DNA of 64,000 nucleotides from the IMG/VR virus record IMGVR_UViG_3300025070_000019, positions 32,642 through 96,641 of that record; one strand, given 5' to 3'. Under the pieces are notes generated by a model. It was not told where the DNA came from and made no database searches. It was given only the letters and a program-made list of their open reading frames with translations. How positions within the stretch are numbered: position 1 is the first letter of the stretch; each line of letters opens with the position of its first letter. Made by a program: the position numbers and the translations under genes. Origin of the DNA: a virus. This document shows, piece by piece, positions 770 through 19,253 of the stretch.

Positions 770-2034
770 GTGGAGAGTATGTACACTTACATGTACATAC
801 CGAGTATAGTTTATTAGATGGTATAAATAAGGTTAATAGATTACCACATATTATAAAAGAGATGAATCAACCTGCATTAGCTATGACAGATCATGGCAAT
901 GTATCTGGTTCATTTAAGTTTTATAAAGAGTGTAATAAAGCAGGCGTTAAACCTATTATAGGTATGGAAGCTTATTATACTGTAAATGATAGAACTGCTA
1001 GAGAAAAAGATGAATTAGAAAAATCCTATTATCATCTTATTTTGCTGGCTCAAAATAATATTGGTCTAAAAAATCTTATAAAACTATCTTCTTACGCTTA
1101 TACAGAAGGTATGTACAGGAAACCACGTATTGATGATGCATTAATTGCTCAATACTCTGATGGTATAATTGCAACGACTACTTGTTTAGGTGGTCGTGCA
1201 TCTCAATTAATTATTAATGGCCGAGAAAAAGAAGCTGAAAATTTAATACATCATCATAAAGCAATGTTTAAAAATAGATTTTTAGTTGAATTACAATTAC
1301 ATAAAGACAAAGATCAACAACTAGTTAATAATGTATTACAAAGAATTGCATTAGATAATGACTTACCTATGGTTCTTACAAATGACTGCCACTACACGCA
1401 TGAGCATGATAAGTGTCATCATGAGGCAGCTTTATGTTTGCAAACAAAAACAACTCTTAGTAATGAGAAACGTTTTACTTTTGGTGAAATAGATGTACAT
1501 GTAGCACATCATGACTGGATGTGGAAACATGCAGAAGCTCAAGGAATGCCTTATGATGTTATTAGTAATAGTGTTGCTGTTGCTGATTTAATTGATAGCG
1601 ATTCATATTTTATGGATAGAATGAATCGTTATCCTAAGTATCAAGAGCTACCTGAAGATATGACTTCTATTGATTATCTGAATGTAGAAGCTCAACATGG
1701 ATTGTATAGGAGGTTTAAAGAGTTGCCTCCAGAAGATTATAGAAAACGTTTAGCCTATGAGCTGAAAGTAATTAAAAGAATGGGTTTTGCTGATTATCTT
1801 TTGATTGTTGCACAATTTATGAATGGCGCAAAAGAAAGAGGTGTTTTGCATGGCCCCGGTCGTGGCTCTGCTGCAGGTTCTCTTATTGCTTGGGCACTTG
1901 GTATTACTGAAGTGGATCCAATTAAATATGGATTAGTTTTCGAACGTTTTTTAAATGAAGGTCGTGGTGCTACACCACTTATATTCAATAAACAAATGGC
2001 TTTAATAGCTGATCAAAATGGTTTACCATTTTAA
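766..2034 (+). CDS. dnaE: DNA polymerase III alpha, piece 1 (PHP domain plus start of palm)
   Basis: HLHVHTEYSLLDG, TDHGN, GMEAY, TNDCHY, GPGRGSAAGSL, FERFLN; ends before the catalytic DxD. Confidence 0.95.
   Translation: MSGEYVHLHVHTEYSLLDGINKVNRLPHIIKEMNQPALAMTDHGNVSGSFKFYKECNKAGVKPIIGMEAYYTVNDRTAREKDELEKSYYHLILLAQNNIGLKNLIKLSSYAYTEGMYRKPRIDDALIAQYSDGIIATTTCLGGRASQLIINGREKEAENLIHHHKAMFKNRFLVELQLHKDKDQQLVNNVLQRIALDNDLPMVLTNDCHYTHEHDKCHHEAALCLQTKTTLSNEKRFTFGEIDVHVAHHDWMWKHAEAQGMPYDVISNSVAVADLIDSDSYFMDRMNRYPKYQELPEDMTSIDYLNVEAQHGLYRRFKELPPEDYRKRLAYELKVIKRMGFADYLLIVAQFMNGAKERGVLHGPGRGSAAGSLIAWALGITEVDPIKYGLVFERFLNEGRGATPLIFNKQMALIADQNGLPF
1964..1976 (+). repeat. Direct repeat copy 1, GTGGTGCTACACC
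   Basis: 12/13 identical to 3108-3120, same codon phase (GGT GCT = G-A). Confidence 0.75.
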
Positions 2035-2047
2035 GAAAGAAAAAATA

Positions 2048-2476
2048 ATGCAAATTAAAACTCCTTTTATTGTATACTACGAAGATTACAAAAAAGATAA
2101 CAATATTTTAAATGAAAATATTTATAAAAATTTGAATAAAAGTAATTTAAATTCTTATAAAAGAATTATAAATAGAATCAACAGAAACCTTCACGAAGGT
2201 AACGAGCATGTAGCTCATTATACCAAAAAAGCTATCATTTCATTTGAAAAGAGCGAAATATGTTTTACTAATTTAAGATCTTTTTTAACTTTAAAAGATC
2301 AATTTGTAAATGAACAGTCATTCAATTTAGCAAAGATTAAAACTGCTAGTGAATTTGAAGATTGGGTTAGAAATCAAAATGAAGACAAACCTTTAGAATT
2401 ACTTAATTTAAAAATTCAAGAAATTCAACATAATTTAAATGGTTTAAAAGAGTTATTAAAAAGTTTTGATTTATGA
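2048..2476 (+). CDS. Hypothetical protein between dnaE pieces 1 and 2
   Basis: ORF (ATG 2048 preferred); no recognisable nuclease motif. Confidence 0.65.
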   Translation: MQIKTPFIVYYEDYKKDNNILNENIYKNLNKSNLNSYKRIINRINRNLHEGNEHVAHYTKKAIISFEKSEICFTNLRSFLTLKDQFVNEQSFNLAKIKTASEFEDWVRNQNEDKPLELLNLKIQEIQHNLNGLKELLKSFDL

Positions 2477-2718
2477 AAATTAAAGAAGTACCTATTTTAT
2501 GGAGGATGAATCGTAAAGCTAAAACTGCTACAAACAGTTTTAGTACAGATGGAAGTAACATTTATAGTTATCGTCTTAAAATTGGTTATACAAATGAATA
2601 TGGTCAAAAAGTTTTACTTAGATATACAAAAGAATATAACAATTTCAAAAGTCACACTACTAGTAGACACGTCAATCTAGCAGCTTATCATGCTGACATA
2701 TTTGAAATACCTAGCTAA
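2473..2718 (+). CDS. Small basic hypothetical phage protein
   Basis: 81 aa, ATGA overlap with the previous ORF; IYSY..TTSRHVN pattern. Confidence 0.7.
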   Translation: MKIKEVPILWRMNRKAKTATNSFSTDGSNIYSYRLKIGYTNEYGQKVLLRYTKEYNNFKSHTTSRHVNLAAYHADIFEIPS

Positions 2719-2781
2719 CATCCACCTTTACATCTACGTACGGGTTGTAACATCCAACGTTTAAACATAGAAAGACCCTTT

Positions 2782-2865
2782 ATGCAAAAAATTTGTATTG
2801 AACTTTTTTTAATTCCAGCAATAATTGCTTTTTTTAAAAAAATGAAAAAGAAAAAAAATGTATGA
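2782..2865 (+). CDS. Possible 27 aa hydrophobic/basic peptide (MQKICIELFLIPAIIAFFKKMKKKKNV)
   Basis: Read from sequence (below the ORF-track cutoff); overlaps the dnaE piece 2 start. Confidence 0.35.
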   Translation: MQKICIELFLIPAIIAFFKKMKKKKNV

Positions 2866-4450
2866 CAGTAGAAAAAATAATTTAAAACTCTTAGATGAGA
2901 ATATAATAGATGAAAGATACGATCAAGTCGATCCCGATTATTTAGCTTTTGAAGTTAAAATGGTATCAGATGAAGATTTAGAAAGAATTTTCTGGTTGTT
3001 AACTGAAAAAGTTAAATTTGAATCGAATCCATACAATTCTATCTTGCTTTATATTACAGGGATTACAGATGACTTTAATTTTGATAAAGCTAGATCTGAA
3101 ATGGTTGGTGGTGCTCCACCTGACATTGACATTGACCATGATGCTTTAGACAGAGAAGAAGCGATTCAATGGTGTGTTGATTACTGGGGTAGAGAAAATG
3201 TAGCTAATATTATTACTCATGGTACTTTTAAACCTAAAAGTTTAGCGCGGTCTTTTTATCGTATTACTGAAGGCAATAATGAAGACCTTAACGAGTTACT
3301 TAAAAAGATACCTATGCCTGTATATGGTAAAGAAGCTACATTAGATGAAATACTTGAAGTTGCACCTGAAATAAAAGAAGAAATACGATATGCAAACTTT
3401 TTGGAGTTTGCAGATCGTATTGAAGGTATGGTTTCTACATTTGGTATTCATGCTGCTGGTATTATTATATCTGACACTGAAGTTAATGATACTGTTCCTG
3501 TATGGAAAAATAGCAAGGCAGATCGTATTACTCAATATGATAAAGATGAATGTGAAGAACTTGGTTTGATTAAGTTTGACTTCTTAGGTATAGACACATT
3601 GTCTATTATTAAAGAATGCCGTCATTTAATTAAACATCATACTTTATTAGATATAGAACCATATGCAATTGAAGATGGAGATGAAAGAACTTATCAGACA
3701 CTTTGTAGTGGCTTGCTTACTGGCGTCTTTCAAATGGAAACATCTGGTACTGCTAAAAAACTAATACTTAGTATTCGTCCTAAATCAATAGAAGATTTAT
3801 CTGCTATATCAGCTTTGAATCGTCCAGGTCCGTTACAAGCAGGACTAGATAAACAATATATAGAGAACAAATATAAGGGCTCTCCTCCAAAAGATTTACC
3901 TAGTAATGTTGCTGAAGTATTACAAGCTAGTTACTGGACTTTAGTTTATCAAGAACAAGTAATGGATATATGTTCTAAAATTGCAGGATTCACTCCTAAA
4001 CAAGCTGATGATATTCGTCGTGCTATGGGTAAAAAGAAACATGAAGTATTAGAAAAATATAAAGAACAATTCATTGAAGGTTGTCAATCAATTGGTGGTC
4101 TTGCCAAAGATTATTCAAGTAATCTTTGGGATGATCTTGTCGGTTTTGCAGACTATTGTTTATTAGGTAATACTAAGATTCAAACTGTAGATGGTACTTT
4201 CACAATAAAAGACATAGTTGATAACTTTATTTCAGCAGAAGTATTTAGTTATAGTTTTAAAGATAAAAATTTTATTAAACAAAAAGTATCTCAATGGTAT
4301 AATCGTGGTGTCAAGCCAGTATATCGTTACACGTTAGAAGATGGTACTTATGTCGATTGTACAGAAGATCATAAGTTTTTAACAATAAATGATGATATGC
4401 TTGAAATTGATGCTATATTTGATAAAAATATAAAATTAAAGACTAAATAA
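2858..4450 (+). CDS. dnaE: DNA polymerase III alpha, piece 2 (catalytic palm/thumb/fingers) fused to split intein N-half
   Basis: PDIDID, GIHAAG, KFDFLG, GVFQME, ALNRPGP, VYQEQVM, RRAMGKK, then FADY|CL intein start. Confidence 0.95.
   Translation: MYDSRKNNLKLLDENIIDERYDQVDPDYLAFEVKMVSDEDLERIFWLLTEKVKFESNPYNSILLYITGITDDFNFDKARSEMVGGAPPDIDIDHDALDREEAIQWCVDYWGRENVANIITHGTFKPKSLARSFYRITEGNNEDLNELLKKIPMPVYGKEATLDEILEVAPEIKEEIRYANFLEFADRIEGMVSTFGIHAAGIIISDTEVNDTVPVWKNSKADRITQYDKDECEELGLIKFDFLGIDTLSIIKECRHLIKHHTLLDIEPYAIEDGDERTYQTLCSGLLTGVFQMETSGTAKKLILSIRPKSIEDLSAISALNRPGPLQAGLDKQYIENKYKGSPPKDLPSNVAEVLQASYWTLVYQEQVMDICSKIAGFTPKQADDIRRAMGKKKHEVLEKYKEQFIEGCQSIGGLAKDYSSNLWDDLVGFADYCLLGNTKIQTVDGTFTIKDIVDNFISAEVFSYSFKDKNFIKQKVSQWYNRGVKPVYRYTLEDGTYVDCTEDHKFLTINDDMLEIDAIFDKNIKLKTK
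3108..3120 (+). repeat. Direct repeat copy 2, GTGGTGCTCCACC
   Basis: 12/13 identical to 1964-1976; immediately before the PDIDID codons. Confidence 0.75.
4157..4447 (+). mobile_element. Split intein N-fragment (IntN, 97 aa), Npu/Ssp DnaE-like
   Basis: Cys1 after FADY; CLLGNTKIQTVDG..VSQWYNRGVKPVYRYTLEDG..CTEDHKFLT (block B TxxH)..MLEIDAIF, then stop. Confidence 0.95.
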
Positions 4451-17956: not shown

Positions 17957-17986
17957 AAAGCGTCTTAATTGACGCTTTTGTTTTTT
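17957..17986 (+). terminator. Intrinsic terminator-like hairpin just upstream of dnaE piece 3
   Basis: AAAGCGTC-ttaatt-GACGCTTT followed by TGTTTTTT. Confidence 0.6.
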
Positions 17987-17999
17987 GAGGTATGTAAAA

Positions 18000-18113
18000 A
18001 TGAAAATTGTAAAAAAAGAATTTCTTGGTAACCAAGAAGTTTACGATATCGGTGTGTCTTCTAACGAAGATGCACATAACTTTTTGCTAGATAATAACTT
18101 GATAGCAAGTAAT
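18000..18113 (+). mobile_element. Split intein C-fragment (IntC, 38 aa)
   Basis: MKIVKKEFLGNQEVYDIGV..HNFLLDNNLIASN followed by Cys+1; matches Npu/Ssp DnaE IntC blocks F/G. Confidence 0.95.
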
Positions 18114-19253
18114 TGTTTTAACAAAGCGCATTCAGTTAGCTATTCTATGTTAACTTATATTAGTGCTTATCTAAAAACTCACTACCCTGTTTACTTTTTT
18201 ACTGCTTTGATGTCTACTCGATCTAAAACTTTACAACCTAAATCATGGGCTGTTAAAGCTCCTGAATATGTATTGGAAGCAAAAAAATTTAATATAGATA
18301 TAAATACTCCTAGTGTTAATAAATCAGGTTATGAATTTACTATCTTTAATAATGAAGTATACTTTGGGTTAAATGCTATAAGAGACGTAGGTAAAACAGC
18401 AGCTAAAAGTATTATCAAAGCGAGAAAGAATGTCCCATTTAAAGACATTCTTGATTTTGTCGAACGTGTTAACTTGCAAAAAGTAAATACTAAAACTTTT
18501 GAAGCATTAGCCTATGCAGGTGCTTTTGATAGAATGGGTTACTCTCGTAAAGAGCTTATAGAAAAAACTTCTGAAATATATTCCTATATAAGAGATTTAG
18601 AAGATTATCGACAACGTAAAATAGATGCAGCTGCTAGACGAGAAAAAAATGCTCGCAATACACCTTTAATAGAAAGACGTAACTTTTTACGTAAAGAAAT
18701 AAAAAAAATAAACAATCGTATCAATAAGGATAAAGCTAAAGAAGAAGACTTTGAGAATTTGACTGTGTATGAAAATGAACTAGAACCTTTAGAAGACTTA
18801 GGACTTAAGAAACTAGTTGATCTTAAAGAAAAAGAAAGACCTGTTTTTCCTGAGTTAAAACGCAATAGTTCTGTTGAGTTAGATCTTCAGGATATAACTC
18901 AACAAGCACACTACATTGGCTGTTACTTAGGTGGACACCCTTTGCAATTTGTACAAGTAAGTGGTGTTTCTCAAATTATTTCATTAGATATCGGTGAAAT
19001 TGATACAATAGCTGGTGTAATATTAGGCATTCGTGAGATTACTACTCGTAAAGGCAAAAAAATGGCTGTTATAGATGTAAACGACTCAACGAATACTACT
19101 GAAATAGTTTGTTTTCCTTCAACATGGTCTAAGATAAATAATATGAATTTAAAAACTGGTGATATAGTTAAAGCTAAAATCAAAGTAGAAGAGACAGATC
19201 CAGACTATAAAATGATATTATTCAGCTTAACTACTGTTGATCAAAATCAATAA
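18000..19253 (+). CDS. dnaE: Split intein C-half fused to DNA polymerase III alpha piece 3 (fingers end, HhH, OB fold)
   Basis: GAGG RBS, ATG 18000; ..ASN|CFNKAHSVSY..AYLKTHYP..PSVNKS..FGLNAIRDVG..AGAFD..GCYLGGHPL..TRKGKKMA. Confidence 0.95.
   Translation: MKIVKKEFLGNQEVYDIGVSSNEDAHNFLLDNNLIASNCFNKAHSVSYSMLTYISAYLKTHYPVYFFTALMSTRSKTLQPKSWAVKAPEYVLEAKKFNIDINTPSVNKSGYEFTIFNNEVYFGLNAIRDVGKTAAKSIIKARKNVPFKDILDFVERVNLQKVNTKTFEALAYAGAFDRMGYSRKELIEKTSEIYSYIRDLEDYRQRKIDAAARREKNARNTPLIERRNFLRKEIKKINNRINKDKAKEEDFENLTVYENELEPLEDLGLKKLVDLKEKERPVFPELKRNSSVELDLQDITQQAHYIGCYLGGHPLQFVQVSGVSQIISLDIGEIDTIAGVILGIREITTRKGKKMAVIDVNDSTNTTEIVCFPSTWSKINNMNLKTGDIVKAKIKVEETDPDYKMILFSLTTVDQNQ

Follow-up and report, generated by a model that had tools for sequence, protein, structure and literature searches.

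The window analysed here, a 64,000-nt stretch of viral DNA, encodes Pol III alpha (DnaE) in pieces, and a 13-nt direct repeat lies at the two break points between the first piece and the second. An initial annotation of this locus raised the question of whether the repeat marks a site at which the intervening sequence is removed or skipped, so that a single chain is restored, or whether it is only the relic of a partial duplication. As detailed below, the locus very probably holds conserved, separately translated DnaE pieces with overlapping homology, and the repeat would then be a functionless echo of shared codons.

Architecture of the split polymerase and its repeat

DnaE piece 1 (422 aa, 766-2034; all features discussed lie on the plus strand) contains a PHP domain, the N-terminal palm half with the GPGRGSAAGS (GS) motif, and an 18-residue tail. 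In Pfam, its residues 7-179 match PHP and its residues 304-404 match positions 2-102 of the DNA_pol3_alpha profile. Piece 2 (530 aa, 2858-4450) comprises a leader, the catalytic DxD strand, the remaining palm, the thumb, the fingers and the N-half of a split intein; DNA_pol3_alpha positions 100-260 map to its residues 86-244, the finger domain to 247-411 and the intein to 448-517. Piece 3 (422 aa, 17985-19253) carries the C-half of the split intein (ending ...IASN|CFN), an HhH domain and the C-terminal region, and the three pieces jointly hold all Pol III alpha domains. The break between pieces 2 and 3 is of the same split-intein type as in the fractured genes of Dassa et al. 2009 (PMC2677866), which combine split inteins with a free-standing endonuclease; as in those genes and with the cyanobacterial split DnaE intein, a marine/metagenomic DnaE is found in adjacent genes with ORFs between them. 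Unlike the fractured genes, however, the first break has neither intein halves nor catalytic splicing residues, and pieces 1 and 2 therefore cannot be ligated. We found no description in the literature of an intein-free DnaE split of this kind, and an INPHARED blastn search returned no close phage.

The repeat at this first break is present as initially annotated, with copy 1 (GTGGTGCTACACC, 1964-1976) and copy 2 (GTGGTGCTCCACC, 3108-3120) offset by 1144 nt and identical at 12 of 13 bases. Copy 1 reads as codons (C)GT GGT GCT ACA CC(A), encoding RGATP, and copy 2 as (G)GT GGT GCT CCA CC(T), encoding GGAPP and adjoining the DIDID catalytic strand, which lies immediately 3′ of it at 3122-3136. 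The shared codon phase and G+C richness noted earlier are likewise borne out: both copies begin on the second codon base of their respective ORFs (766-2034 and 2858-4450), and 8 of 13 bases are G or C versus 28.8% in the window. Removal of the 1144 nt would indeed yield an in-frame product, FERFLN-EGRGAPP-DIDIDH, with the canonical seven-residue spacing, but the agreement is trivial, because both pieces retain the homologous linker ahead of the DxD strand and Pfam DNA_pol3_alpha profile positions 100-102 are accordingly present in each. The predicted join of the two copies reads EGRGAPPDIDIDH at the junction 1971^3116.

How much of the nucleotide identity calls for explanation can be gauged from the encoded residues, since RGATP and GGAPP by themselves force eight matches and one mismatch. 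Under the phage’s own codon usage, in which GGT accounts for 57% and GCT for 52% of their respective codons, the probability that all four free third positions match is ~0.025, or ~0.05 with the CGT codon given; the coincidence is mildly unusual, and multiple looks remove its significance. On the level of bare DNA, the repeat is one of two G+C-rich 13-mer pairs spaced no more than 2 kb apart in the whole window, and 15 direct-repeat families of at least 11 nt are found in the same 1.7 kb. Copy 1 is further spanned by a self-complementary hairpin, GTGGTG-CTA-CACCAC (6 bp, 1964-1978), which is not conserved among relatives, and a promoter/terminator scan of the gap gave background only, the sole ‘terminator’ called being the repeat copy itself.

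Conservation of the split around a variable gap

The DnaE break is common to all 21 related loci, 10 from IMG/VR and 11 recovered in a metagenome scan, and these retain both the piece 1 tail and the piece 2 leader (~85 residues). Piece 1 is kept at full length in all relatives, and the positions of its stop and of the piece 2 start are conserved as well. Its C-terminal tail, with the motif LIF[ND]KxMAxxADxxxxPF, occupies 1978-2034 together with the stop codon, and tail length and motif are unchanged in 14 of 15 distinct relatives; the tail sequence includes …LIFNKQMALIADQNGLPF. With dS of 0.3-1.3, dN/dS amounts to 0.03-0.2 for the leader among close relatives and to 0.09-0.29 for the tail: both extensions are under purifying selection and both are therefore translated. 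Leader-bearing piece 2 proteins form a large family of dozens of 50%-identity clusters. The closest protein relatives include P0001, 97% identical. A fused piece 1-piece 2 protein was found in none of the relatives of at least 50% identity, and IMG/VR contains no junction DNA.

The gap between the two pieces, by contrast with this conserved frame, varies from ~250 nt (L012, L021) to 4 kb (L007) and differs in its ORF sets. In the window it holds O1 (2018-2476; 152 aa, or 142 aa if started at the ATG at 2048), an ORF unmatched by any family and shared with L019 only, followed by O2 (81 aa, 2473-2718), also without a family match but with homologues in the gap of most relatives. A mini-ORF for a 27-aa hydrophobic peptide (2782-2865) overlaps the piece 2 ATG by 8 nt, and both the mini-ORF and the identical overlap are kept in L017, L025 and L026. 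Eleven gap ORFs from six loci gave no match to Pfam or to PHROG families of known function, and neither a recombinase nor a homing endonuclease is recognisable among the gap ORFs with these two resources. The sole conserved non-coding DNA of the gap is an element at 2716-2781 with a pair of TAACAYCCA boxes 32 nt apart, which could be aligned in 16 loci, is unique within the 96.6-kb contig and probably serves as a signal for the expression of piece 2. RNAalifold gave no consensus structure for this element, and a candidate hairpin drawn by hand within it has weak covariation support.

The repeat does not share in this conservation. Its 12/13 match is limited to the window and its close relative L017, the only two loci in which all four free third positions agree; in L018 the copies match at 10 of 13 bases although piece 1 is 94% identical to that of the window, and in twelve further distinct loci the match is 7-10 of 13, where the encoded residues account for eight of the matches. 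Across relatives, the repeat is thus free to vary at its synonymous positions, and in L006, for instance, GGT GCC stands against GGC TCT. The synonymous matches common to the window and L017 are at least consistent with a local constraint on this sublineage.

The leader as a second copy of the palm segment

Piece 2 opens with a leader (88 codons, 2858-3121) that is a decayed palm segment in which NP[HY]NS replaces the GS loop, and its intact counterpart is the palm segment at codons 326-404 of piece 1 (1741-1977). In hhalign comparisons piece 2 residues 26-72 align with piece 1 residues 326-383 at E 1.3e-5, a significance reached only with deep profiles: the two segments gave no significant match to each other in BLASTP (E 0.13) or in hhalign with eight sequences each (E 0.28), and leader residues 1-58 alone match the palm weakly (E 0.006). 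The assignment agrees with the mapping of both pieces onto the same 82 codons of unsplit DnaE genes: on one phage DnaE both align to residues 332-414, and on another DnaE they overlap by 245 nt. Leader-type and canonical sequences share E32, S61 and R79 at a conservation of 90% or more. The same homologous segment is thus represented by residues 326-404 of piece 1 and residues 26-88 of piece 2, and a different motif is lost in each copy, the pattern left by fission through partial duplication and complementary decay: piece 1 retains GPGRGSAAGS and has PLIF in place of PDID, whereas piece 2 retains DIDID and has NP[HY]NS at the position of the GS loop.

An AF2 model of piece 2 residues 1-433 (pLDDT 90.8) shows the leader as a confidently predicted helical subdomain and superposes with single-chain Pol III alpha from E. 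coli (2HNH/5FKV), T. aquaticus (2HPI/3E0D) and M. tuberculosis (5LEW) at Z 18-20 over ~345 residues. Among the 11 top chains, VIA-align end points reach leader residues 27-28 in six and residue 23 in one more, where the placement of the leader may be biased by the canonical sequences included in the AF2 alignment; with only 22 sequences the prediction dropped to pLDDT 60 and was unusable. Unlike the single-chain enzymes, the locus places the GS motif and the DxD aspartates on two polypeptides and adds the decayed palm segment to the second.

Alternative readings of the break

Split inteins start with Cys or Ser in the N-intein and end with Asn in the C-intein, followed by Cys, Ser or Thr, and their HINT fold takes ~130 residues. 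The break could accordingly be a decayed or atypical split intein, in which the leader up to NP[HY]N would be a C-intein remnant with Ser+1 and the tail a short N-intein. This is an improbable reading, albeit one with several points of contact: the N-S pair is invariant and preceded by a variable residue (H/Y/T), as at intein C-termini, other DnaEs have an intein at the homologous site (GPGRG|C...HN|SAAGS), and phmmer alignments to intein-bearing DnaEs start ~24 residues within their intein. Piece 1, however, runs past GPGRG and includes the whole extein segment as far as P404, its tail begins with Leu, a non-nucleophile, and tail and leader at ~78 residues in total are too short for a HINT fold. 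Eight leaders gave no Pfam intein match, and splicing would duplicate a helix and disrupt the canonical spacing. A profile comparison with intein C-ends aligned the extein part only, while the leader aligns with canonical palm, and an intein-remnant origin of the leader was judged less likely on this ground.

It is also quite unlikely, and more so than an intein remnant, that the repeat acts as a substrate for DNA deletion, be it homologous, microhomology-mediated or site-specific, through which some genomes would have lost the 1144 bp and regained a single-chain gene. The in-phase 12/13 identity would indeed give an in-frame join with canonical spacing, and L017 keeps the same repeat pair; against this, the match falls to 10/13 in L018 and to a background of 7-10/13 in all other relatives, and neither a fused protein in close relatives nor junction DNA in IMG/VR was found. 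Such a deletion would moreover remove the tail and the leader, both under purifying selection, and 13 bases with a mismatch are a poor recombination substrate, with no recombinase gene recognised in the gap. A more restricted variant, in which the repeat would permit occasional microhomology-mediated deletion or polymerase template switching in the sublineage of the window and L017, yield a single-chain piece 1-piece 2 and render the fission reversible at low frequency, carries a very slight probability.

Removal of the interval as RNA, through a group I or group II intron or non-canonical splicing, is remoter again. Group I introns do exist in the DnaE of relatives L008 and L014, and splicing therefore occurs in this gene family, but intron covariance models over the gap gave no score in 1700-3400 even at E up to 10, and the gaps of 10 relatives were likewise without a score. 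In the same run the true introns, which lie inside the piece 2 homologues of L008 and L014 and thus serve as a positive control, were recovered with Rfam Intron_gpI at 66.8 and 62.9 bits. Furthermore, a gap of 250 nt to 4 kb with variable content contains protein-coding genes and is flanked by selected coding sequence.

In the bypass of T4 gene 60 a stop codon directly follows the take-off codon and the gap is non-coding and ~50 nt long. Ribosomal hopping from GGT/GCT take-off codons to matched landing codons in that style has next to no plausibility here, for although GGT GCT occurs at both sites in the window, so that matched codons flank an interval in a phage replication gene as in gene 60, and a 6-bp take-off hairpin (1964-1978) is present in the window only, the gap measures 1144 rather than 50 nt and holds two or three translated ORFs, the take-off site is followed not by an adjacent stop but by ACA, with the stop 20 codons on and the last 18 codons forming the selected tail, the codons are unmatched in L018 and 12 other loci, and the hairpin is not conserved.

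Together, the unconserved repeat, the selected coding sequence in the flanks to be removed, and the failure to find an intron match or a fused form leave the site of DNA excision, non-canonical RNA splicing or ribosomal bypass proposed in the initial annotation unsupported. That annotation had itself named the lack of nucleotide-level conservation in homologous loci as telling against its proposal, and such conservation was looked for and is absent; its fallback of a partial-duplication relic, on the other hand, is the reading favoured by the deep-profile and unsplit-DnaE alignments.

Proposed assembly and origin of a two-chain active site

In light of these results we propose that Pol III alpha is encoded as separate genes whose first break involves neither an intein nor an intron, and that pieces 1 and 2, translated independently, most likely assemble non-covalently into one active site, to which piece 1 would contribute the GS motif and piece 2 the DxD aspartates. 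The 18-residue tail and the ~85-residue leader probably aid this assembly, possibly in a docking role. The fission would have originated in a partial duplication followed by complementary decay, with piece 1 keeping its palm segment intact. The repeat would then sit at the 3′ end of this ancient overlap, where both copies encode G-A-x-P before the catalytic strand and where the favoured codons of an A+T-rich lineage, GGT, GCT and xCA, would happen to coincide.

The closest precedent is the NrdA-a/NrdA-b pair of Aeromonas phage Aeh1, a phage ribonucleotide reductase split in its catalytic core over two genes (Crona et al. 2011, PMC3045599). It functions without RNA splicing, protein splicing or DNA rearrangement and needs unique tails at the break for the assembled enzyme; the break holds the homing endonuclease gene mobE, whose insertion gave rise to the tails (PMC3045599). 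As with Aeh1 NrdA, the core of an essential phage enzyme is here cut into two translated pieces with conserved break-specific extensions. Unlike in Aeh1, no endonuclease is recognisable with Pfam or PHROG, the leader derives from the enzyme’s own palm segment as a decayed duplicate, and the role of the two extensions is putative.

Had the repeat been a signal for recoding or excision, it would have implied a hop of 1.1 kb or a novel form of splicing, either of which would be remarkable, and its rejection removes a false lead. What stands in its place is of moderate interest: a break that bears the textbook marks of duplication and subsequent complementary decay, in a replicative polymerase whose active site appears to be split over two polypeptides and has long been kept so in a large clade of uncultured marine phages.

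The 13-nt repeat at the first break

The window spans the right-hand 64 kb of an IMG/VR contig of 96.6 kb from an uncultured A+T-rich phage (28.8% G+C). The phage's Pol III α subunit (DnaE) is encoded in pieces: piece 1 (422 aa; 766-2034) carries the PHP domain and matches positions 2-102 of the Pfam DNA_pol3_alpha profile, piece 2 (530 aa; 2858-4450) matches positions 100-260 and also contains the finger domain plus the N-terminal half of a split intein, and piece 3 (17985-19253) carries the C-intein (…IASN|CFN). Just ahead of piece 1, a RecA-like gene ends (its 3' part at 1-495), and a small Cys-rich ORF (503-769) has its stop overlapping the piece 1 start. Inspection of the sequence bears out every detail of the direct repeat described in the initial annotation at the first break, between pieces 1 and 2: GTGGTGCTACACC (1964-1976) and GTGGTGCTCCACC (3108-3120) each start at codon position 2 of their ORF, share 12 of 13 bases and lie 1144 nt apart, and the joined reading is FERFLN-EGRGAPP-DIDIDH. 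The two profile matches share just 2-3 positions, the G-A-x-P residues encoded by the repeat; piece 1 continues for an 18-residue tail past P404, and piece 2 opens with a leader of ~85 residues ahead of the DIDID strand that has no Pfam match.

The encoded residues (R/G, G, A, T/P, P) dictate matches at 8 of the 13 positions as well as the sole mismatch, leaving four third positions free. All four are identical only in the window and the related locus L017; the repeat drops to 10/13 in L018 (piece 1 identity 94%), and to 7-10/13 in 12 further distinct loci (longest exact runs 2-7 bases), with each synonymous position varying among relatives. Given the codon preferences of the phage (GGT 57%, GCT 52%, ACA 42%, CCA 32%) the four matches have a chance probability of ~0.025, or 0.05 with CGT given, and the G+C richness of the repeat merely reflects Gly, Ala and Pro codons. 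Copy 1 itself forms a 6-bp hairpin (1964-1978; GTGGTG-CTA-CACCAC), flagged as terminator-like by a scan, because GGTG in Gly codons is complementary to CACC in Thr/Pro codons, and it is not conserved in relatives. The repeat thus lacks nucleotide-level conservation in homologous loci, the very outcome named in the initial annotation as speaking against a functional site. The string is real but has no function as a feature: it is what remains, at the level of codons, of an ancient overlap, and codon bias has sharpened the match in one sublineage.

Homology of the leader to piece 1

The fallback reading of the initial annotation, a relic of partial duplication, is upheld by both profile comparison and alignment to unsplit DnaEs. 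By BLAST, piece 2 residues 22-88 align through the leader with residues 332-414 of the unsplit DnaE of Streptomyces phage Godpower, the same segment matched by piece 1 residues 322-404; the alignments of the two pieces to a second unsplit DnaE share 245 nt, and leader residues 59-62 are where many phmmer alignments with full-length DnaEs begin. Leader and piece 1 profiles of eight sequences per side gave no significant match; once the profiles were enlarged to 59 leader-type and 57 canonical segments, hhalign paired residues 26-72 of the leader with residues 326-383 of piece 1 (E 1.3e-5, probability 80%), matching D-x-L-x-F-E with RLxYEL and NSiLLYitGlTd with GSLVAYxLGIT. In the joint alignment E32, S61 and R79 are ≥90% conserved in both groups. 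When piece 2 residues 1-433 are modelled with AF2 (114 sequences, pLDDT 90.8), the leader is confidently predicted as a helical subdomain, and the model matches Pol III α with Z 18-20, the match reaching leader residues 27-28 in 6 of the 11 top chains and residue 23 in one more, a placement that the MSA may bias. The leader has NP[HY]NS in place of the GPGRGS loop, which piece 1 retains, and piece 1 has PLIF at the place of PDID; such reciprocal losses are the pattern that would be expected of partial duplication followed by complementary decay. The leader was also considered as a possible intein remnant because other DnaEs (P0053, P0057, P0075, P0084, P0105, P0137, P0167) carry inteins inside the GS motif (GPGRG|C...HN|SAAGS), ~35 residues upstream of the break; against the intein C-ends of other DnaEs, the extein part alone aligns.

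Conservation of the break and its gap

The same break occurs in every covering locus among 10 IMG/VR relatives (57-81% identity) and 11 metagenome relatives (up to 94%). Piece 1 ends there in …GR[GA]A[TS]P, LIF[ND]KxMAxxADxxxxPF and the stop, with a differing tail in the most distant relative, L014 (…GRAAQP), and the leader consensus is …RYxQVDPDYLxFEVKMxSxEDLxRI…NPHNSILLYITGLTDxFDFxKARSDTIGGAPP. In an all-against-library search, leader-bearing piece 2 proteins form a large family of dozens of 50%-identity clusters, either 530-560 aa with a terminal N-intein or 790-850 aa with piece 3 fused and no intein, a distribution indicating that the first break is old and predates the intein break. DnaE pieces with other natural split points (P0060, P0104, P0107, P0112, P0154, P0115, P0118) begin variously, exactly at MPDIDxD, at MGFxxYFLIV or at the palm start.

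The gap ranges from ~250 nt with one 56-codon ORF (L012, L021) to 4 kb (L007), and its genes change even among close relatives: L018 holds only an O2 homologue, and the L017 gap spans 2.9 kb. Neither window ORF, O1 (2018-2476) nor O2 (2473-2718), has a family match; O1 is confined to the window and L019, and O2, a conserved protein of about 81 aa (SFSTDG..LYSY...IG.T..YGQK.L..YTK....TSRHVNLA), is frequently found in the gaps of relatives as well (L005-L010, L013, L017-L019, L023-L026). In most relatives, though not in the window, piece 1 is followed by another small ORF, which ends in WKTAK. A 27-codon mini-ORF (2782-2865), encoding a hydrophobic peptide with a Lys-rich end (MQKICIELFLIPAIIAFFKK...), has a stop that overlaps the ATG of piece 2 by 8 nt. 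L017, L025 and L026 retain it with identical overlap, and other relatives lack it. The sole conserved non-coding DNA of the gap, a 65-nt element (2716-2781) unique in the 96.6-kb contig, holds two TAACAYCCA boxes 32 nt apart, with a candidate hairpin between them (weak covariation support). It sits immediately upstream of piece 2, or of the mini-ORF ahead of it, and is kept in 14/16 related loci despite saturated synonymous sites. The element may serve the polymerase gene as a promoter or a translational operator, and its presence agrees with piece 2 being expressed on its own.

Joining of the genes or assembly of their products

The site of DNA excision, RNA splicing or ribosomal bypass proposed in the initial annotation is not borne out: the repeat is not conserved, no intron or fusion was found, and the flanks are under selection. 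A permissive Rfam scan of 1700-3400 gave no intron, and a run on ten relatives scored no group I intron in any piece 1-piece 2 gap. The group I model did score inside piece 2 homologues, a good positive control: 66.8 bits in L008 (9516-9838, at ALN|RPGP; also in L009 and L010) and 62.9 bits in L014 (10978-11214, at RRAMG|KKK), where the insertion also holds a 278-codon ORF with LAGLIDADG-like motifs. The longer piece 1 homologues at 59-79% identity (P0173-P0179; 745-817 aa) are not fusions to piece 2 but piece 1 with a full LAGLIDADG intein about half-way along, yet another interruption of the polymerase in this clade, and the next best are cellular DnaEs (41-45%). A degenerate pattern for the predicted junction DNA had no match in IMG/VR. 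Bypass fares no better, with no stop after the take-off codon, genes inside the 1144-nt interval, and matched codons and local hairpin (1964-1978) that are not conserved.

In Nei-Gojobori estimates from close relatives (dS 0.3-1.3), the leader has a dN/dS of 0.03-0.2, its final 28 codons taken alone give 0.05-0.2, and the 18-codon tail lies at 0.09-0.29, compared with 0.03-0.12 for the neighboring polymerase core; piece 1 tail length and stop position are fixed. Tail and leader, the sequences that joining would take out, are by this measure translated, and a joined product discarding them is hard to reconcile with their selection. What the relatives preserve is two separately framed genes, each with a break-specific extension under selection, the GS motif being confined to piece 1 and the DxD aspartates to piece 2. 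We propose that the two products would assemble unligated into one active site, with tail and leader serving as putative docking elements, and that the split intein would then ligate piece 2 to piece 3. The tails of split NrdA in phage Aeh1 (PMC3045599) offer a parallel to such docking; Aeh1 and the 'fractured genes' (PMC2677866) differ in featuring a homing endonuclease, whereas none was recognisable here among 11 gap ORFs from 6 loci compared with Pfam and PHROG. Fission of phage DnaE is recurrent, and the intein-free split enclosing the repeat is genuine and of moderate novelty, a new form of the genes-in-pieces arrangement.
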